This document shows positions 22,284-42,275 of a stretch of DNA of 44,212 nucleotides, in pieces. The notes beneath the pieces were generated by a model, which saw only the letters and a program-made list of their open reading frames with translations, was not told the DNA's origin and searched no databases. The stretch's first letter is position 1. Every line of letters begins with the position of its first letter. The DNA comes from Planctomycetota bacterium (lineage in GTDB: Bacteria; Planctomycetota; Phycisphaerae; Sedimentisphaerales; UBA12454). Both the position numbers and the translations under genes were made by a program. The stretch is taken from NCBI GenBank assembly GCA_022705345.1, contig JAKJEQ010000002.1:1-44212 (forward strand), given 5' to 3'.

Positions 22284-22301
22284 TTTTGAAAATGAAATTT
22301 T

Positions 22302-22932
22302 GTTCAGCGGATCTATAAGCCGGGTTCTGTCTCGCCCCGTTACTATTTGTACTGACTGACTGATTGGATAAAATGCGTTAGTAAAAAAGATAATCAGCAT
22401 CGAATCTAAAACGAGAACAATACAAATAGTAACGGGGTTAAGCGACCATTTCTCTGGGGTCGCCATTACTGGCGGCCTCAAGCAGCCTACCCGCTGAAGT
22501 AACGCTCGGGCCGAGCATTTCAGCATACTTGGCCTTGCAGACGGTGGGGTTTGCCGTGCCGATCCTGTCGCCAGAATCGCGGTGCGCTCTTACCGTCCTG
22601 CTTCGCTTACTTTCGTAAACTGGCAGGATTCATACTGTTTTGCTTGGAAGCTACGCAGGATGAACACCATTTCACCCTTACCAATTTGAAATCTCAAATT
22701 GGCGGTATACTTTCTGTTGCACTTTCCCGTCCCGCACTTACTTCATATTCTCGCAAAATGGATTTATTGCCAAAAGAATACCAAGTAAGTGCGGGAGGTG
22801 GCCGTTAGCCATCACCGTGCCCTGTTCTGCCCGGACTTTCCTCCCCGCACCTGCTCCGTATTCTTCTAAGAATCTATTACTTATTAAAAAGAATACCAAG
22901 CAGGTGCGGGGCGATCGCCCGACCCGCTGAAC
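22302..22932 (-). ncRNA. rnpB: RNase P RNA, bacterial type A core with large helix expansions (~631 nt)
   Basis: The reverse strand contains GGAAAGTCCGGGC (P4 5' strand), CAACAGAAAG, GGTAAGGGTGAAA, GGTAAGAGCGCACC, GGGTAGGCTGCTTGAGG and ACAGAACCCGGCTTATAG (P4 3' strand). The ends pair as GTTCAGCGG / CCGCTGAAC (P1). Confidence 0.85.
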
Positions 22933-26849: not shown

Positions 26850-28316
26850 ATGTCCATATCTTGTTTAACAGAAGAGCAATTATTCGAAGCTGTCGGTGCT
26901 ATTAAAGCAACTAAGAGCAAAAGGCCGATCACTCGGACCGATTTAAAAAATTATGTCTCTTCGTTTTTGAATATCAATATCAGCGACCAGAAACTCTGTC
27001 CGGGCCACGATTCGCCGATGGATTATTTATGGCACAGTTATAACAGCGATTTTGACTCCAGCGCTAACGGGGATTGCGTAGTGTGGGCGGGCAGGGGCGG
27101 CGGCAAAACATTCATCGCCTCAATCGCCGCGCTTCTTGACTGTGTATTCAAACCGGGATGCAAAACGAGGATTCTCGCAGGCAGCGAAGAGCAGGCGCAT
27201 CTGATGTATGACAATCTGGCAAGTTTGGCACAGGACCATTTTCCTTACCTGCTTTTTGAGAAGCAAAAAAACAAGTGCCGATTTGTCAATGGTTCCGATG
27301 TCCAGGTGCTTACGCAGTCAATGGCTTCGGTTCGCGGCAGTCATATTCATAAGATTCGCTGCGATGAAGTCGAGCTTTTTGAAAGGCCGATTTTTGAGGC
27401 CGCAAAGTTCATTACAAAAAGCAGCGGCGGCATCGTCGGAGCTATGGAAACTCTGAGCACAATGCATCATCCTTTCGGGATTATGCACGAGCTTGTGGAA
27501 AAAGCGAAAGACAACGGAACAAAAATATTCAAATGGTGCATCTGGGAAGTGATCGAAAATTGCAGGGACAGAAGCTGCGGCCAATGTCCATTGAACAATG
27601 ATTGCCGAGGGCGGGCAAAAAAAGCTAACGGCTTTTATAAAATAGATGACGTAATTGCGCAGCTAAAACGAACAAGCAGGGCGATGTTCGATTCGGAGAT
27701 TCTTTGTTTGCGGCCGTCGCTGCAAAATGTAGTCTTCGCGGAATTCGATCCCAATTTACATATAAAATCTGTTGAATATAATTCCGAACTTCCTCTGTAT
27801 CGCTCGATAGATTTTGGGTTTGTTAATCCTTTTGTATGTTTATGGATCCAGGTGGACAGCAAAGGCGTTGTCAGGGTCATAGATGAATATGTCCAGAGCC
27901 GAAGGACGATAGATTATCATGCGGATGTATTGAAAAACAGAAAGCCTTACAATGAAGAGAAAGTGATAATGACTTTTTGCGACCCGGCCGGTTCGGGCGT
28001 TAACGATGTTACGGGCACAAGCCCTGTCAGTATGCTGCGGGCGAAAGGAATCAGGCTTCGCTACAAACGAAGCTTGGTTCTCGAAGGGGTAGAACTTGTC
28101 AGAAAGGCTCTTCGGACAGGCGACGGAAAAAGCAGTTTAGTAATCAGCTCGCGATGCGGCAATTTGATACAGGCAATGCAGAGTTACCATTATCCGCAGA
28201 GCGGCTCAATTGAAACTCCGCAGAAAGACGGCGTTTACGATCATCCAATCGACGCGTTGCGTTATTTCTTTGTAAATCACAACAGTTTGTCGCCAGCAAA
28301 AACAAGAAATTACTGA
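26850..28316 (+). CDS. Phage terminase large subunit (TerL-like), orphan
   Basis: 488 aa. Walker A VWAGRGGGKTF, Walker B IRCDEVELF, and nuclease-domain acidic motifs IDFGFVNP, TFCDPAGS and YDHPIDALRYF. Good RBS (GAGGAGG) upstream. Confidence 0.8.
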   Translation: MSISCLTEEQLFEAVGAIKATKSKRPITRTDLKNYVSSFLNINISDQKLCPGHDSPMDYLWHSYNSDFDSSANGDCVVWAGRGGGKTFIASIAALLDCVFKPGCKTRILAGSEEQAHLMYDNLASLAQDHFPYLLFEKQKNKCRFVNGSDVQVLTQSMASVRGSHIHKIRCDEVELFERPIFEAAKFITKSSGGIVGAMETLSTMHHPFGIMHELVEKAKDNGTKIFKWCIWEVIENCRDRSCGQCPLNNDCRGRAKKANGFYKIDDVIAQLKRTSRAMFDSEILCLRPSLQNVVFAEFDPNLHIKSVEYNSELPLYRSIDFGFVNPFVCLWIQVDSKGVVRVIDEYVQSRRTIDYHADVLKNRKPYNEEKVIMTFCDPAGSGVNDVTGTSPVSMLRAKGIRLRYKRSLVLEGVELVRKALRTGDGKSSLVISSRCGNLIQAMQSYHYPQSGSIETPQKDGVYDHPIDALRYFFVNHNSLSPAKTRNY

Positions 28317-35829: not shown

Positions 35830-36975
35830 TCAGCTGTACTGTTTGCGCGTTCGATAGCCTGCTTGCGCCCCATTGCCGTTTTCATCGGACCCGTTGGCAG
35901 ATTTTTCGTATTTCCCGAAAATCATTCTGCCTGCCGAAGTCTGCAGCGCACTGGTAACGACAATCTGCACCCTTTCGCCGATTTTGCCCCGGCCCTCTTC
36001 TACGACAACCATTGTGCCGTCATCGAGATATCCAATTCCCTGCTGGGATTCTTCGCCTGGCTTTATGATGCGAACCTGCATAGTTTCGCCGGGGAGCACA
36101 ACTGTTTTCAATGAATTTGTCAAATCGTTGATGTTGATAACATCCACCTGGCGGACTTGCGCAACTTTGCTCAAATTGTAATCGTTCGTAATGAGTTTGC
36201 CGTCACAATTTTTGGTAAAAGCGACCAGCTTCTGGTCAACCTGCGCATGCTCGTCAACGCCCGGCGGAGGCGTATCATCGACTTTGACCTCTATGTGCGG
36301 GTTTTCCTGGAGTTTATGCAGGATATCAAGACCGCGGCGTCCTCTGGTTCGCTTGAGCTTATCGGCGGAGTCAGCAATTAATTGCAGCTCGTTCAAAATG
36401 AACCTCGGAACTATAAACGGGGCATCAAACAGCTTCGTCTGGCAAATATCAGATATTCGGCCGTCAATAATCACCGAAGTATCGAGCACCAAAGGCCTGA
36501 CACCTTTTGTCTGACGTGAAAACTCAACATAAGGAATAATGAATCTAACTTCATCCTTAGTACGCATTATGAAACTGATAACAAAATAGCAAATGCAAAT
36601 ACCCATCATCCACTTAGTAAGCTTTAGATTGCTCCCTTCAAGCCCGATCTTGAAGACCTCGTTAATCATGTCCAAAACAAGCGTTAAGGCCCAACTGAAA
36701 AATATACCGACAATAAGGCCGAAGAAAACACCCGCCAGCGCACTTAAGGAACGTTTGGGCAGGAGCCAATCGATAAACAAAACCACAACCGCAAGCACAA
36801 GACCGCCTATGAAAACTATCCAGATTTGGGTCTGGGTGAGCCGTTGTGCTTCGTCAGGATCTTCGACCTGACTTGTGATACTAAGGAATAATGCCGCAAA
36901 TAAAATGACAATAAAAAAGAAGCGAATAAAGTGTAATAACATATAACGTACTCCAAAAAATATAATAAAAAACAA
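35830..36975 (-). CDS. PIN/TRAM domain membrane protein (YacL-like)
   Basis: 381 aa. N-terminal TM helices, PIN motif LVLDTSVIIDGRI, and a C-terminal TRAM-like beta domain (GETMQVRIIKPGEESQQGIGYLDDGTMVVVEEG). Confidence 0.8.
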   Translation of the reverse strand: MFFIIFFGVRYMLLHFIRFFFIVILFAALFLSITSQVEDPDEAQRLTQTQIWIVFIGGLVLAVVVLFIDWLLPKRSLSALAGVFFGLIVGIFFSWALTLVLDMINEVFKIGLEGSNLKLTKWMMGICICYFVISFIMRTKDEVRFIIPYVEFSRQTKGVRPLVLDTSVIIDGRISDICQTKLFDAPFIVPRFILNELQLIADSADKLKRTRGRRGLDILHKLQENPHIEVKVDDTPPPGVDEHAQVDQKLVAFTKNCDGKLITNDYNLSKVAQVRQVDVININDLTNSLKTVVLPGETMQVRIIKPGEESQQGIGYLDDGTMVVVEEGRGKIGERVQIVVTSALQTSAGRMIFGKYEKSANGSDENGNGAQAGYRTRKQYS

Positions 36976-37049: not shown

Positions 37050-37919
37050 CTACTTTTTAAATTTAATATGACAAATCACTGCCAGCGACCACAGGATATC
37101 AGCGGAGGCAATGAGTTTCGTTTCGTATTTTTCGTTAATCGGGATAAGATGAACGGAGGAACCGTCCATCCTTACCAGCTTGCAAGTTACGCCAATGGCG
37201 TTGTTTATGCGAACTACAGCGGGCATTCCTTCGACGGCGGCAACAGACGGGCTGACAATAACTATGTCGCCATCGTTAATCTGCGGGGCCATACTGTCGC
37301 CATCGACCTGCAAGGCAAAACTATCAGGGAAAAGATCGTGAATCTCGCTGCATTCGACAAATTGAGTGACCTCAAGATCATTGGCGGCAGTTATTGAGTT
37401 TATGACCGAAGCGTTCAGATGGCTGCTGACCAGTTGCTCGATTTGCGTTTCGACGAGTTTTGAATCGGTGCCTATTGCCTTGCTCCACAGGCCGGCAATG
37501 CCGGCGGCAGTTCGGCCGAGAACGGGAATCCAGCCGTTTCTCGTGGAACTTTTTGGTTTTAGCCGAGATTCAAGGGCGGATTTTTCTTCCAGCAACGTCA
37601 GAAATGCGGAAATTGCGTTGGCAGATTGCGGCTGCGAAAGGAGGATTTTCTGGGTTTTTTCGATAATTTTGAGGTTTTCGCCAGAAACATCCCCCGCACC
37701 TGATTTTCGGCCGGTTAAAAGCCAGTTCAGGTCGATGCCTGCAATTTGGGAGATTTTTATTAATATGGGCACCGGCGCAAGGCGGTCTTTTTCATAATAA
37801 CTGTACGTAGAGGGACTTAGGCCAAGCAATTTGGCGAATTTGTTTCGGCCGCGCACGCCGGCTGTCGAAGTTCGGACCTCGATAATCCTCTGTATTATGC
37901 TATTTTCGAGTTCATCCAT
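37050..37919 (-). CDS. CI/LexA-type repressor: XRE-family HTH + S24 peptidase domain
   Basis: FAKLLGLSPSTYSYYEKDRLAPVPILIKISQIAGIDLNWLLTG is an HTH_XRE motif. The C-terminal LQVDGDSMAPQINDGDIVIV....VTCKLV carries the S24 Ser/Lys dyad context. The start is set at the internal MDELEN (37919), not the hydrophobic upstream extension. Confidence 0.8.
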   Translation of the reverse strand: MDELENSIIQRIIEVRTSTAGVRGRNKFAKLLGLSPSTYSYYEKDRLAPVPILIKISQIAGIDLNWLLTGRKSGAGDVSGENLKIIEKTQKILLSQPQSANAISAFLTLLEEKSALESRLKPKSSTRNGWIPVLGRTAAGIAGLWSKAIGTDSKLVETQIEQLVSSHLNASVINSITAANDLEVTQFVECSEIHDLFPDSFALQVDGDSMAPQINDGDIVIVSPSVAAVEGMPAVVRINNAIGVTCKLVRMDGSSVHLIPINEKYETKLIASADILWSLAVICHIKFKK

Positions 37920-38048
37920 AAAAAATATTCGCTTATGCGAAGTTTTCTCTTGCAATATTCGCAAATGCGTATAAAACAAGACTGAAATGTGTAATATTTC
38001 TAAGAATAATAACACAAAAAGGGATAATAGTCAAGGAGCGTTATCAAA

Positions 38049-38364: not shown

Positions 38365-38495
38365 CAGAAAAAGTGCAAAAAAAAGGTGGGGAAAAAGTGC
38401 GAAATTAGCGAAAAAAAGTGCGAAAAAAGCGGAAATAAGTGGTGTAAAAGTATCTGAAAAGTGGGTGAAAAGACGGAAAAAGTGTAAAAATAGAA
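38365..38495 (+). repeat. Iteron-like array: six degenerate direct repeats with ~21-bp period (core GAAAAAGTGYRAAA)
   Basis: AAGTG cores start at 38371, 38395, 38416, 38437, 38459 and 38480, giving spacings of 24, 21, 21, 22 and 21 nt. They are embedded in A-tracts. The ORFs called here are low-complexity artefacts. Confidence 0.6.
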
Positions 38496-38628: not shown

Positions 38629-38656
38629 TTGAATTTGGTTTTTATAATAATATAAT
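38629..38656 (+). promoter_or_regulatory. Candidate sigma-70-type promoter for the four-gene operon
   Basis: TTGAAT (38629-38634), a 16-nt spacer, then TATAAT (38651-38656). It ends ~90 nt upstream of the first gene. Pattern match only. Confidence 0.3.
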
Positions 38657-38744: not shown

Positions 38745-39311
38745 ATGTCTAAAATTTCAAGTAGAAATATGTTACTTTTGATGCTTGGAATTGCTAAAAA
38801 ACCAAAGATTGTGGGTGAAGGAATCAATGGTATTACACGCCTGCAAAAACTACTGTTTTTATTGGAAAAAGAAGGTTTAATTAAAAAAGTAGAAGGAGGT
38901 TATCAGTTTCAAGCATATAAAGCAGGCCCATATTCTCCTACACTATATGATGATTTAGAATTTTTAGAAAATCTTGGTTTTATTAAAAGTGAGGTTTCTG
39001 GCACTGCAACTGAAGAAGAAGCTGCTGACATGGATTTTACATTTGAAGAATTAATGGATGAAGAAGTAAAAACAGCGGACGTGTACGATGAGAAACGTTT
39101 TACTTTGACTGAACAAGGGCAAAACAAAGTTAAAACTTTGATTGAATCAACTGATTATGAACCATTAATTGAAGGAATTAGAAAAATAAAATCAAAATAT
39201 GGTGATTATTCTTTGGATGATTTGCTTTATTATGTTTATACCAAATACCCTGAAATGACTACCGAATCAGAAATTAAAGATCATGTCCTACGTAAAGGGC
39301 GGAAAAGGTGA
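38745..39311 (+). CDS. Panacea/DUF4065 (SocA/GepA-like) domain protein, possible antitoxin/regulator
   Basis: 188 aa. GITRLQKLLFLLEKEG....YQFQAYKAGPYSPTLYDDLEFL matches the Panacea pattern (T.LKLQKLLY ... F.AW..GPV.P.lY) recalled from the family. RBS GAGGGA. AT-rich codon usage. Confidence 0.55.
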   Translation: MSKISSRNMLLLMLGIAKKPKIVGEGINGITRLQKLLFLLEKEGLIKKVEGGYQFQAYKAGPYSPTLYDDLEFLENLGFIKSEVSGTATEEEAADMDFTFEELMDEEVKTADVYDEKRFTLTEQGQNKVKTLIESTDYEPLIEGIRKIKSKYGDYSLDDLLYYVYTKYPEMTTESEIKDHVLRKGRKR

Positions 39312-39913
39312 CAAAAACTTTACTGGAATGGTCGTTAGGTGGTCATGTTGCGATTATTGTAGTTGCATTGACTTTTTACAAATTTGTCTTTTCAGAAATA
39401 GCTGAAAATGTCTTAGAAAAAGGGAAGATGATCGCCAAAAAAATCGAAGCAAAGATATTTTTGGAACTATCTATAGTTTTGAAACCTTTTCTCGACAAGG
39501 AACGCACTAGTTCAATTATCATAGTAAGCCAATGGAATATTGATAGTGAAGAATACAAGGAGCAATGTATAGATATCCAAGGGACTGAACAATACAAAAA
39601 TGCAATCCATGATTTTATAAAGAGTAATACGAATCCGATGTTAGATTTTAGATTTCTCAAAATAAAAATAGATAGATGCCTTTTTTGGAAACGCTACTTA
39701 AAAAAATCTGTAACAATACTTGTTGGTTTCCATTTGTTAATTGTAGCGTTTGAAGTTGTTTGCAAGATATACGGAATCTGTAGTGATAATAAATTAGTTT
39801 TGGTTGTTTTAATTTTGTCATCATTTTTGACGATTGCAAATTGCTTTTTTCCACTTTGGCCAATTAGCCATTACAATGATGATATAGAAGACATTGAAAG
39901 ACTCTATGCTTGA
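39308..39913 (+). CDS. Small membrane protein (one N-terminal and two C-terminal TM helices), no known family recognised
   Basis: 201 aa. The GTG start overlaps the upstream stop (GTGA). TM segments are HVAIIVVALTFYKFVF, VTILVGFHLLIVAFEVVCKIYGI and LVLVVLILSSFLTIANCFFPLW. Confidence 0.6.
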   Translation: MTKTLLEWSLGGHVAIIVVALTFYKFVFSEIAENVLEKGKMIAKKIEAKIFLELSIVLKPFLDKERTSSIIIVSQWNIDSEEYKEQCIDIQGTEQYKNAIHDFIKSNTNPMLDFRFLKIKIDRCLFWKRYLKKSVTILVGFHLLIVAFEVVCKIYGICSDNKLVLVVLILSSFLTIANCFFPLWPISHYNDDIEDIERLYA

Positions 39914-40322
39914 TTTAACAAAAGAAGCGTCGTTGTTACAACCAGTAACAGGTTATATAAAAAGAAAAGGATTCAATGTACAAGGAACAGAAATTCCATT
40001 CTACAATCGAAGCGTTGACATATACGGTTTTTCCAAAAAAACAAATAAAACAATAGCTATTGAATTGAAACTGAATAAGTGGAAGAAAGCCTTTTCACAA
40101 GCAGTCATTTATCAGTTGTGTGCTGACGAATCTTACATTGCGATGCCACATAAATATACTATACGAGTAGATAGAAATTTACTAATAACTTTTGGAATCG
40201 GATTAATCGCAGTAAATGATATTGGCAGGTGCTTCAAAATGATTGAAGCACGCCAATCGTCAGTTGTCAAAAACTATTATAAAAAAAATCATATCGAATT
40301 TCTTAAAAGGTTGGAAAAATGA
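39906..40322 (+). CDS. Small PD-(D/E)xK nuclease-fold protein
   Basis: SVDIYGFS....KTIAIELKLNKWKKAFSQAVIYQ...ESYIAMP fits the hhhD-x(10-15)-hhhExK core with the following helix and strand. The ATG at 39906 overlaps the upstream stop by 8 nt (the track start at 39894 is a TTG). Confidence 0.5.
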   Translation: MLDLTKEASLLQPVTGYIKRKGFNVQGTEIPFYNRSVDIYGFSKKTNKTIAIELKLNKWKKAFSQAVIYQLCADESYIAMPHKYTIRVDRNLLITFGIGLIAVNDIGRCFKMIEARQSSVVKNYYKKNHIEFLKRLEK

Positions 40323-41635
40323 GTAATAAGCCACAACTTATCATTCGAATGGGAAGTCATGCCGAAAAAGAATACATTATGAAATTAAATCATAAAGTTT
40401 TCGATGGAATTGTAATTGGGGCTAACGTAGTGGAAGCAACAGCAGGTGCTACTGCTAGTTTGATTGGTAAAAAATTGAATTTACCTTATTATATCGATCC
40501 AATGACTTATGTTTTCGGTTGTGATCTAGATGGCATCAAATCAGAACAAAAAAAAATGATTCAAGGAAAAAAGAAAACAGTAAGAGATTACAAGCGGTCA
40601 TATTTAGGATTAGCTGATGAATTAGGATATGTATTTGTAAATGCACTAAAAACTGATACATGTATTCAGCCGGACATTTTCAATCCGGCAACTATAAAAA
40701 GAACTTGTCAAAACGTTATAGAATATCAACGCAATAGAATTGTTGAGGAATTTAAGAAAGATGAAGAATATGAAGAATATGCAGATGCAATTAAACCACC
40801 TGCTGGAATTTTTTCGCCATATTTCTATGTGAATAACAGAAGAAGTTTTGAATTATTTCTAGAATTAGCTCATGCAACAACAATAATAGAAACAAATTTA
40901 CCTGTTTATTCTGTTTTATGTGCAGATGTAAATTCATTAAACGATGAATCGTTCATCGAAAAAGTTTTAGAAGAAGTCCCTAAAACAGGTATCTACGGTG
41001 TATGGCTTTGGTTTTCAAAATTTGATGAATTCGAATCAAATATGAAGACGCTCAGAAATTTCAAAAATTTAGTTCATGGATTAAGTAAAAATGGCTTAGC
41101 TGTTTTTAACAGACATGGGGGATATTTTAGTATGGTTTTAAATAAATTGGGTATGACCGGCATAAGTCATGGTATTGGTTATGGAGAAAAAAAAGACGTA
41201 TTTCAAATAGAAGGCCCTCCCAATGCTCCAGTCGTACAATATTATTTACCCGATTTGTTTAAAAGATTTGGGATTGATAACATCGAAAGATGTTTCGACG
41301 AATTAGGCGTTACAAAGCCCCAACATTTTCATAATTCTATTTGCGATTGTGTTATATGTAAAGGAGTTATTAAAAATAATATTTCTGAATTTAGAGAATT
41401 TGGAGAAACACATTATGCCAGACTTGAATCTAAAAGAGAAACTCAAACTCCAGCAGCTGCTAAACGCAGCCGTTTCCATTTTTTGATGAACAGAATTAAA
41501 GAAAAAAATTTTATTAATAAAAGCAACTTGAAAGAGATTATTGAAAAGATGCAAGAGTCACAAGAAAAATGGGAAGATCTTGACTCAGTTATCCATTTCA
41601 ATTATTTAGATAATTGGATCAATTCTCTTAATTAA
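40319..41635 (+). CDS. 438-aa protein with a TGT/DpdA-type zinc motif (CxCxxC...H) and an alternating beta/alpha (TIM-barrel-like) pattern; function unknown
   Basis: The ORF itself is solid (the ATGA overlap couples it to the previous gene). NSICDCVICKG....RSRFHFLMNRIKEK resembles the CDCxxC...H-hydrophobic helix of tRNA-guanine/archaeosine transglycosylases. The confidence value refers to this functional family call. Confidence 0.4.
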   Translation: MSNKPQLIIRMGSHAEKEYIMKLNHKVFDGIVIGANVVEATAGATASLIGKKLNLPYYIDPMTYVFGCDLDGIKSEQKKMIQGKKKTVRDYKRSYLGLADELGYVFVNALKTDTCIQPDIFNPATIKRTCQNVIEYQRNRIVEEFKKDEEYEEYADAIKPPAGIFSPYFYVNNRRSFELFLELAHATTIIETNLPVYSVLCADVNSLNDESFIEKVLEEVPKTGIYGVWLWFSKFDEFESNMKTLRNFKNLVHGLSKNGLAVFNRHGGYFSMVLNKLGMTGISHGIGYGEKKDVFQIEGPPNAPVVQYYLPDLFKRFGIDNIERCFDELGVTKPQHFHNSICDCVICKGVIKNNISEFREFGETHYARLESKRETQTPAAAKRSRFHFLMNRIKEKNFINKSNLKEIIEKMQESQEKWEDLDSVIHFNYLDNWINSLN

Positions 41636-41808: not shown

Positions 41809-41816
41809 GAAACACA

Positions 41817-41901
41817 AATAAAAAAGGGCGAACTCCGATTAGATACTTGCAGATTCTTCAAAGAAGCTAATCGACGTATCTAACGGGGCAAGCATATCGG
41901 A
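41817..41901 (+). repeat. ~85-bp direct repeat, copy 1 (contains a 13-bp-stem hairpin)
   Basis: AAATAAAAAAGGGCGAACTCCGATTAGATACTTGCAGATTCTTCAAAGAAGCTAATCGACGTATCTAACGGGGCAAGCATATCGGA. The arms CCGATTAGATAC / GTATCTAACGG pair. Confidence 0.8.
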
Positions 41902-42082
41902 CAAATGAAGATTGACCCATTCGGCTTCGCTCAGGACGGGGATTGAAGATTTGAGAACCGGTAAGATTTGGTATTTTTCAGCGTTGATTTTTTATGGAGG
42001 CCGGATCCTTCGACTCCGCTGCGCTTCGCTCAGGATGACAAAGGGCAGGCGGGGCAGGCATAAAACTAATATCAAAATTTAA

Positions 42083-42166
42083 AATAAAAAGGGCGAACCC
42101 CGATTAGATACTTGCAGATTCTTCAACGAAGCTAATCGACGTATCTAACGGGGCAAGCATATCGGA
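42083..42166 (+). repeat. ~85-bp direct repeat, copy 2 (a third, truncated copy lies at 42217-42244)
   Basis: Near-identical to 41817-41901, with a few substitutions and one missing A. AAAAAAAAAGGGCGAACCCCGATTAGAT recurs at 42217-42244. Confidence 0.8.
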
Positions 42167-42275
42167 AAAGCAGGCAATACGAATTTTAAATTTGAAATTG
42201 AGATTTCAAAATTCAGAAAAAAAAAGGGCGAACCCCGATTAGATTTCTTTAAAAACGTTGACTGATCTTCGAGAT

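Follow-up and report, generated by a model that had tools for sequence, protein, structure and literature searches.

The present analysis concerns a cassette of four genes in a Planctomycetota bacterium (assembly GCA_022705345.1, contig JAKJEQ010000002.1), located at positions 38745–41635 on the forward strand of a stretch of 44,212 nucleotides that was analysed as a whole and is referred to here as the window. The genes, termed g1 to g4, follow one another with overlapping stop and start codons. The first, g1 (38745–39311), is an ATG-initiated open reading frame (ORF) of 188 amino acids whose product resembles Panacea and the C-terminal domain of DarG. It is followed by g2 (39308–39913), which opens with GTG and encodes a 201 amino acid protein with three transmembrane (TM) helices, the proposed membrane effector and the occupant of a variable position, slot 2. 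The start of g2 overlaps the stop of g1 by 4 nucleotides (GTGA), and use of the GTG codon is supported by relatives that begin with the same M-T residues. The end of g2 is in turn overlapped by g3 (39906–40322), encoding a protein of approximately 138 amino acids with an isoelectric point (pI) of 9.8 and, by motif, a PD-(D/E)xK nuclease. Lastly, g4 (40319–41635), its start overlapping the g3 stop within ATGA, encodes a 438 amino acid protein with the predicted TIM-barrel fold of the tRNA-guanine transglycosylases (TGT) and serves as the signature gene of the cassette. The GC content of the four-gene block is 31.5%, compared with 44.3% in its surroundings.

A first-pass annotation of the window had described the first two of these ORFs as they are found here, including the TRLQKLLFLLE segment of g1 and the length and GTGA overlap of g2, and had interpreted them as a possible pair of the PanA/PanT antitoxin-toxin type embedded at the head of the operon. 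This interpretation is supported only in part: an autonomous pair finds no support, as g1 is locked together with g3 and g4 across architectures.

Conservation of the cassette and exchange of its proposed effector

A genome scan with a profile of g4, using one genome per species, returned 50 loci. In approximately 45 of these the four genes overlap and keep the order g1-g2-g3-g4; the other five are truncated where the contig ends. The same arrangement was recovered in most loci of a metagenome scan, for which the g4 sequences of greatest divergence served as seeds. This order spans more than 10 bacterial phyla, with carriers among the Planctomycetota, Sumerlaeota, Gamma- and Alphaproteobacteria, Acidobacteriota, Gemmatimonadota, Latescibacterota, Ignavibacteriales, Bdellovibrionales, Armatimonadota and Chloroflexota, while two archaea hold relatives with other slot-2 content. 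Three further g1 homologues situated on long contigs also lie within a cassette, one copy of which has decayed, and, whichever of the genes was used to retrieve the loci, g1 never occurred apart from g3 and g4. In every architecture, g1 is inherited with g3 and g4, whatever the effector.

Three such architectures emerged from the metagenome scan. The type found in the window is composed of g1, the 3-TM protein, g3 and g4. The PIN type harbors a PIN domain protein in the second position (g1, PIN, g3, g4) and is represented by eight loci, including one from the archaeon Wolframiiraptor, with slot-2 PIN matches all above the Pfam threshold (E 1e-10 to 1e-18). In the SIR2 type, comprising approximately 22 loci, g3 directly follows g1 and a SIR2-like protein of 345–495 amino acids is located after g4, the gene order being g4-SIR2-g1-g3 in approximately 20 loci and g1-g3-g4-SIR2 in locus L117. 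These SIR2 proteins match defence SIR2 models of PADLOC at 3.8e-13. The megaplasmid pHsi540 of Haloarcula sinaiiensis ATCC 33800 encodes, in succession, a SocA-domain protein, two hypothetical proteins and a SIR2 family protein, so that here, as in L117, the SIR2 effector is not adjacent to g1. The TM, PIN and SIR2 types are interleaved on a tree of g4, therefore the swaps must have happened repeatedly, and the catalytic-type motifs of g3 and g4 are intact across all three. As relatives fill the slot of g2 with a PIN RNase or substitute a SIR2 NADase, g2 looks like a killing module, and the earlier view of it as a toxin-like effector is probably right on the basis of this substitution.

A further arrangement was observed in locus L079 (2844–3614 and 3598–4569), where a HipA/PI3K-like kinase ORF with a DRHADN motif (Pfam E 3.8e-5, sub-threshold) lies directly upstream of g1, which is extended N-terminally by approximately 150 amino acids; no slot-2 gene is present. 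Judged by its sequence, this kinase may constitute a fourth effector type.

Mean pairwise identity is 22% for g2, compared with 54% for g1, 45% for g3 and 46% for g4. The g2 gene is under purifying selection, with a ratio of nonsynonymous to synonymous divergence (dN/dS) of 0.05–0.44 in close pairs. Change between closely related cassettes is discontinuous: loci L005 and L007 are 81% identical in g3 and g4 and 26% in g2, and between L087 and L089 the dS is 1.12 for g2 against 0.41 for g4. Positive selection on g2 was considered and rejected, as dN/dS remains below 1 in all informative pairs. Given such ratios and the discontinuous change, the extreme divergence of g2 is better explained as slot replacement, and the sequences point to recombination as the means by which the slot-2 gene was exchanged.

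The cassette also displays signs of horizontal mobility, namely a GC content lower than that of its flanks and a flanking context that is different in every lineage. The former was found in 67 of 79 loci, the GC content never exceeding that of the flanks by more than 3 points. Some copies adjoin integrases, a transposase, a serine recombinase, a methyltransferase and ResIII pair, or an nSTAND1 gene, and a complete though distant cassette (g1, 3-TM, g3, g4) resides on the mobilisable plasmid pSI-1 of Arthrobacter sp. AK-1 (L150, NC_010494.1 61825–64653). Large serine recombinases or tyrosine integrases next to the cassette were noted at L091:8824-10326, L147:2863-3798 and L148:1423-2478. In L148, the surroundings also include an nSTAND1 gene and the reverse transcriptase of a group II intron, and the cassette appears to be decayed: the g3 ORF is missing and an ORF of 291 amino acids stands at the place of g4. 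With regards to viruses, the cassette occurs on two or three of the 2.9 million contigs of IMG/VR, has no match in 50,697 phage genomes and no close structure in BFVD; a viral origin was therefore rejected, the cassette being almost absent from viral collections.

Encoded proteins and genomic surroundings

The g1 protein contains TRLQKLLFLLE at residues 31–41 and FQAYKAGPYSPTLYDDL at residues 55–71. The resemblance to Panacea proposed in the first-pass annotation is real and nearly full-length, with g1 aligning to positions 1–107 of the 113 in profile PF13274 (E 1.1e-4), although its 23.5 bits fall below the gathering score of 25.7. Of 34 g1 relatives, 16 match the same profile at E<0.01, the best of them at 2.5e-5; for a few close homologues a PF13274 match had been precomputed, and PGAP named the Haloarcula homologue a 'SocA domain-containing protein'. 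In addition, g1 matches the PADLOC models PDC-M19A (6.7e-14) and DarG (5.5e-4), with a weak match to SocA in NCBIfam. A G-P-V signature, located in strand beta2 beside the conserved central helix, is characteristic of Panacea (PMC8832971), and DUF4065 has been stated to be homologous to the C-terminal domain of DarG (PMC13621843). At the position of this signature, G61-P62 is present in all 105 g1 relatives examined, while the third residue is tyrosine (Y63) in the window, giving GPY, and phenylalanine in the Arthrobacter and Haloarcula homologues, giving GPF. The helix RLQKLLFLLE that precedes the motif is likewise conserved, with K35 and L39 each found in 104 of 105 relatives.

The AlphaFold model of g1 is of moderate quality (pLDDT 73). 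Its best Foldseek matches in the PDB are 7yk3_B (E 1.9e-4) and 7yk3_D (E 7.5e-4), with TM-scores of 0.52–0.53 and an identity of 15–17%; this entry is the DarTG complex, and the chain matched is the toxin-binding C-terminal domain of DarG, the one relative of Panacea for which a structure has been solved. The next-best folds, the winged-helix proteins PadR, MarR and F-93, are weak matches (E>0.1). From the sub-threshold Pfam match, the invariant G61-P62 and the best Foldseek match to 7YK3, g1 is assigned by sequence and predicted structure to the Panacea/DarG C-terminal domain fold as a distant member. The protein is acidic (pI 5.1) and possesses a disordered acidic loop at approximately residues 83–118, containing 14 aspartates or glutamates against 3 lysines or arginines (family mean 14 against 2). 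Its 656 homologues are nearly all without a name. Searches of PDB sequences with g1, g3 and g4, by single sequence and by profile, gave nothing meaningful.

Parts of g1 are also recognised by other models. Residues 30–95 account for the match to PDC-M19A and match phrog_14939, a phage protein family of unknown function, at 3.2e-14, and the N-terminal half matches the C-terminal end of a model for the S subunit of type I restriction systems (5.9e-9). The N-terminal module thus seems to be reused in other defence-related proteins.

The arrangement of hydrophobic helices in g2 agrees with the earlier description of one N-terminal and two C-terminal helices. Kyte-Doolittle hydropathy, used in place of TMHMM, positions them at approximately residues 9–27, 137–153 and 160–183, with a central hydrophilic domain of approximately 105 amino acids between TM1 and the TM2-TM3 hairpin. 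An alignment of the g2 family gives the same profile, and the hydrophilic middle and C-terminal hairpin are shared by 67 of 71 non-redundant slot-2 membrane proteins, which fall into 11 BLAST clusters. The positive-inside charge pattern of 60 relatives predicts that g2 is N-out with its central domain in the cytoplasm. As the first-pass annotation had noted, no recognisable family accommodates it, significant matches being absent from Pfam, NCBIfam, PHROGs and PADLOC. Exhaustive phmmer searching yields 32 homologues at the representative level, where a word-indexed search finds g2 alone. The homologues of g1 and g2, and the purifying selection on g2, mark both ORFs as real genes.

The probable start of g3 is the ATG at 39906, relatives beginning with MLDLTKE, while the longest ORF opens with TTG at 39894; the product has approximately 138–142 amino acids. 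Numbered from the 39894 start, D42, E57, K59 and Q69 are present in 115 of 115 relatives. Pfam matches of these relatives, all sub-threshold, are to MTES_1575, Mrr_cat, PDDEXK_9, Hjc and NERD. By its motifs, g3 is classified as a PD-(D/E)xK nuclease with an intact catalytic motif.

For g4, the AlphaFold model has high scores (pLDDT 91.9, pTM 0.91) and the top 19 PDB matches returned by Foldseek are all TGT or ArcTGT structures (E 4e-5 to 4e-4, TM-scores 0.37–0.55), the best being TGT (E 4e-5, TM-scores 0.46–0.55), with ArcTGT 1iq8 after them. The DNA preQ0 insertase DpdA (7ui4) follows at E 1.9e-3, and a viral queuine tRNA-ribosyltransferase structure is matched at E 1.8e-3. A zinc motif, C342-x-C344-x2-C347...H387, has its ligands conserved in 111–114 of 116 relatives, and hhalign pairs the CDCVIC of g4 with the zinc site CDCYTC of E. 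coli Tgt. As the zinc motif is all that hhalign aligned between the g4 profile and E. coli Tgt, the catalytic residues of g4 are not mapped onto TGT. D60 (116 of 116 relatives) and E290 (109 of 116) are each located directly behind a predicted strand of the barrel, and both are candidate counterparts of the catalytic Asp pair of TGT, which comprises a general acid/base and a nucleophile. The 367 homologues of g4 are nearly all without a name.

The neighbours of the cassette in the window are ordinary, including a PIN-TRAM membrane protein, a CI/LexA-like repressor, PolA, SecA and a pyruvate:ferredoxin oxidoreductase. A weak candidate for the operon promoter lies on the forward strand at 38629–38656, approximately 90 nucleotides upstream of g1, and consists of TTGAAT, a 16-nucleotide spacer and TATAAT, 10 of 12 positions matching consensus in a consensus scan; the number of promoter-like sites in the region is not above shuffled expectation. 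Alignment of the regions upstream of g1 in close relatives gave no conserved operator, leaving a role of g1 as autoregulator unsupported. Neither flanking direct repeats nor att-like sites were found at the boundaries of the cassette island, Rfam has no match inside or beside the cassette, and no tRNA genes were found in the whole window.

Several other features were observed in the DNA around the cassette. Copies of an 89-nucleotide repeat fill the 760 bp that separate g4 from the pyruvate:ferredoxin oxidoreductase gene, two of them full (41816–41904 and 42081–42169, 94% identical) and one partial (42217–42244). Within the window the repeat is confined to this gap; it includes a hairpin with a T-run after it on the minus strand, and its fold stability is not significantly above that of shuffled sequence (z -1.4). 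On the other side, the 730-bp intergenic region upstream of g1 contains several copies of an A-rich motif of 16–21 nucleotides (AAAAAGTGCGAAA...) at 38368–38493, which are not conserved upstream of related cassettes. The CI/LexA-like repressor (HTH_3 and Peptidase_S24; 37050–38015, minus strand) is divergent from the cassette and of host-like GC content. An S24 peptidase gene is also found upstream of the SIR2-type cassette in L091, and a small Xre-type helix-turn-helix gene abuts g1 in L146. Such genes could hint at SOS or repressor control, or could be a coincidence. The PIN and TRAM protein (35830–36975, minus strand), anchored in the membrane and bearing several hydrophobic helices at its N-terminus, is encoded outside the low-GC block. 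Further away, a lone ORF resembling the terminase large subunit (26850–28316, plus strand; Terminase_6C 4.5e-8, Terminase_6N 4.6e-6) sits amid cellular genes and may be a prophage remnant. A bacterial class A RNase P RNA is encoded at 22300–22930 on the minus strand (240.8 bits) and spans 631 nucleotides against a model of 367 positions, so that large insertions must be present.

Proposed mechanism and alternative explanations

With moderate confidence, drawn from sequence comparison and predicted structures, the cassette at 38745–41635 is read as a conflict system of four genes that is horizontally mobile and belongs to the anti-phage or abortive-infection type, with a core of three proteins and one interchangeable effector. 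Within it, g2 is probably the membrane effector. The pattern of substitution is that of modular abortive-infection systems, which is the reason for regarding g2 as effector and g1, g3 and g4 as a putative sensing and regulatory core; at the level of sequence, the constancy of this core is shown by its conservation, and the effector role is supported by the substitutions. Panacea has been proposed as a neutraliser or sensor (PMC8832971, PMC10440598), and by analogy with the DarG C-terminal domain and PanA, g1 is inferred to act as inhibitor or sensor. That g4 keeps the zinc subdomain which Cap10 has lost is a hint, again by analogy, that it may still engage nucleic acid.

In the mechanism proposed, the four proteins would be made in fixed proportion from their overlapping genes and would assemble as a complex at the membrane through the cytoplasmic domain of g2. 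In the uninfected cell g1 would keep the system off, as the DarG C-terminal domain and standalone PanA do by direct binding, and the acidic loop conserved in g1 may serve as a mimic of nucleic acid, directed at the strongly basic g3 or at g4. Once the cell is invaded, a feature of the foreign nucleic acid would be engaged by g4 and g3, or a trigger would be sensed by g1. Inhibition would then be relieved and g2 would dissipate the membrane potential, the cell stopping before the invader could complete its cycle.

A number of observations weigh against this reading. Many copies of the cassette are situated amid housekeeping genes (rnpA/yidD, purF/purM, serA), which are not recognisable defence islands. 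A PADLOC census of 118 flanking ORFs produced some matches to defence families, some of the models being generic, and is not counted as strong evidence as it lacks a baseline. No match to PADLOC models was obtained for g3, and none for g4 in Pfam (including TGT PF01702), NCBIfam, PADLOC or the sequences of the PDB. As sequence profiles do not reach TGT, membership of g4 in that family is assigned at fold level, by a TM-score of approximately 0.5 and the zinc motif only. The distant Arthrobacter g4 is without the CxCxxC motif, retaining the DP and GISHGVG-x-SE motifs. Comparison of the g2, PIN and SIR2 effector families by hhalign gave no shared docking domain. Furthermore, what g3 and g4 recognise and which partner g1 controls are matters of pure inference.

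The proposal that g1 and g2 form a self-contained type II PanA/PanT pair, in which g1 neutralises the membrane toxin g2 and g3 and g4 are separate passengers, agrees with the Panacea-type fold and its GP motif and with the 4-nucleotide overlap of the two genes. Validated PanT toxins include small membrane depolarisers, a standalone Panacea can neutralise a TM toxin directly, and the change of slot-2 partner (TM or PIN) beside a constant g1 recalls the hyperpromiscuity of Panacea. Such a pair is nonetheless distinctly improbable here. Conserved operons of more than three genes are outside the PanAT definition (PMC8832971), the SIR2-type cassettes place g3 directly after g1 and the effector after g4, and g3 and g4, which accompanied g1 in all loci fetched, keep invariant catalytic motifs in all types. 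Of the four proteins, g1 is the most conserved and the slowest to evolve, which is taken to be unlike typical antitoxins. A purely domestic role, as an operon for nucleic-acid modification or repair with no part in conflict, would suit the position of many copies between core genes and the strong conservation of the core proteins. It is extremely unlikely in view of the patchy distribution over more than 10 bacterial phyla and archaea, the GC content consistently below that of the flanks, the copies located on plasmids or adjoining integrases, the decayed copy in L148 and the toxin-type modules carried (PIN, SIR2 and the small TM protein).

Two other explanations place the activity in g3 and g4. 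In one resembling restriction-modification, g4 would exchange or excise a base of host DNA or tRNA as a mark of self, g3 would cut what is unmarked, g1 would be a winged-helix controller and g2, instead of a toxin, an accessory anchor at the membrane. All characterised canonical enzymes of the TGT family exchange bases in tRNA or DNA, DpdA being an example, and the zinc subdomain retained by g4 stabilises nucleic-acid binding in canonical TGTs; g3 is by motif of the restriction-endonuclease-fold type with a full active site. The explanation is considered unlikely, as an anchor would hardly be replaced by a PIN protein or joined by an added SIR2, and as no deazapurine-synthesis, DpdB/C or ATPase genes lie beside g4, either in the cassette or in its neighbourhood. 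The controller it assigns to g1 relies on the PadR, MarR and F-93 matches, which are weak compared with that to the DarG C-terminal domain, and lacks a conserved operator upstream of g1. The other explanation gives primary immunity to g3 and g4 as a nuclease and glycosylase core, g4 excising a base and g3 cutting the DNA of the invader. In it, g1 would inhibit them or mimic DNA, and a second-line suicide module would be provided by the TM, PIN or SIR2 protein; apart from the place of primary immunity it overlaps with the reading favoured here. It would agree with the invariant active-site-like residues of g3 and g4, with the conserved acidic loop of g1 beside a strongly basic g3, and with the inhibition of a DNA-modifying toxin by the DarG C-terminal domain through mimicry of single-stranded DNA. 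The glycosylase activity of g4 is putative, with no nucleophile equivalent that hhalign could map onto TGT, and this explanation is held to be quite unlikely.

Returning to the conflict system with an exchangeable effector, a bolder version can be put forward tentatively, as possible and somewhat short of probable. The cassette may represent an unrecognised family of prokaryotic immunity, in which g4 and g3 would read or process a feature of the invader's nucleic acid, such as a base that is modified or can be exchanged, and would gate a suicide effector through g1 as an adaptor or inhibitor with a mimicking loop. The effectors would then be pluggable, comprising the 3-TM protein, the PIN RNase, the SIR2 NADase and, possibly, the HipA-like kinase. 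On this version, base-exchange chemistry would be newly employed as an immune sensor or trigger, and Panacea would act beyond two-gene toxin-antitoxin pairs.

Relation to known systems

The four-gene cassette appears to be an undescribed system. No system catalogued in PADLOC-DB 2.0.0 fits it, the partial matches of g1 (PDC-M19A, the type I S-subunit fusion and DarG) being the only ones and g2 having none there, and full-text searches of the literature found no description of this gene combination. If the reading is correct, a widespread defence-type system has been overlooked by the catalogues, probably because its carriers are, with few exceptions, uncultured members of the Planctomycetota, Acidobacteriota, Chloroflexota and comparable groups. 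The role of Panacea would extend from two-gene toxin-antitoxin pairs to the regulation of a multi-enzyme complex. For the TGT fold it would be a third context of defence after Dpd and type IV CBASS, here without a deazapurine-synthesis partner, raising the question of which base chemistry, if any, detects or damages invaders. Cultured carriers, namely Arthrobacter sp. AK-1 with pSI-1 and Haloarcula sinaiiensis ATCC 33800 with pHsi540, make the system tractable.

The PanA/PanT systems (Kurata et al. 2022, PMC8832971; Ernits et al. 2023, PMC10440598) share with the cassette a Panacea-type core with the GP(V) motif, here in g1, and its position next to a small membrane protein, the neighbour (TM or PIN) varying by lineage. 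They are described by an architecture of two, at most three, genes with no longer conserved operon, whereas the cassette is an obligate set of four conserved genes in which the companions of g1 are a nuclease and a TGT-fold enzyme rather than a toxin. In addition, the Pfam score of g1 is sub-threshold, an acidic insertion of approximately 35–40 amino acids is conserved in it, and in some SIR2-type cassettes (L117 and the Haloarcula plasmid) the effector is located away from it. DarTG (PDB 7YK3) provides the best structural match of g1 in the C-terminal domain of DarG, which inhibits a nucleic-acid-modifying enzyme by direct binding and mimicry of single-stranded DNA, and g1 likewise accompanies a putative enzyme of this kind, g4. 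Unlike DarG, g1 is without a macrodomain, and the cassette is without an ADP-ribosyltransferase resembling DarT.

Proteins of the TGT family are already established in defence, with DpdA in the Dpd 7-deazaguanine modification of DNA and Cap10 in type IV CBASS. The TIM-barrel fold and the CxCxxC...H zinc motif of DpdA and TGT are retained by g4. Cap10 shares the fold but lost the zinc subdomain when it was remodelled for protein binding, and so lacks the motif that g4 keeps. In contrast to both systems, the partners of g4 are a PD-(D/E)xK nuclease and a Panacea-fold protein, and at the level of sequence g4 itself matches no TGT, DpdA or Cap10 model; DpdB/DpdC, helicases, a CD-NTase and QueC/Cap9 are absent from the cassette and its conserved neighbourhood.

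In its overall organisation, the cassette invites comparison with CBASS, Thoeris, Pycsar and short pAgo. It differs from these in being without a nucleotide cyclase, TIR or Argonaute, and its effectors display no recognisable second-messenger sensor, the PIN proteins being bare domains. What it has in common with them is one conserved core combined with alternative small TM proteins, nucleases and SIR2 NADases, housed in a compact, horizontally transferred cassette with a GC content below that of its surroundings.

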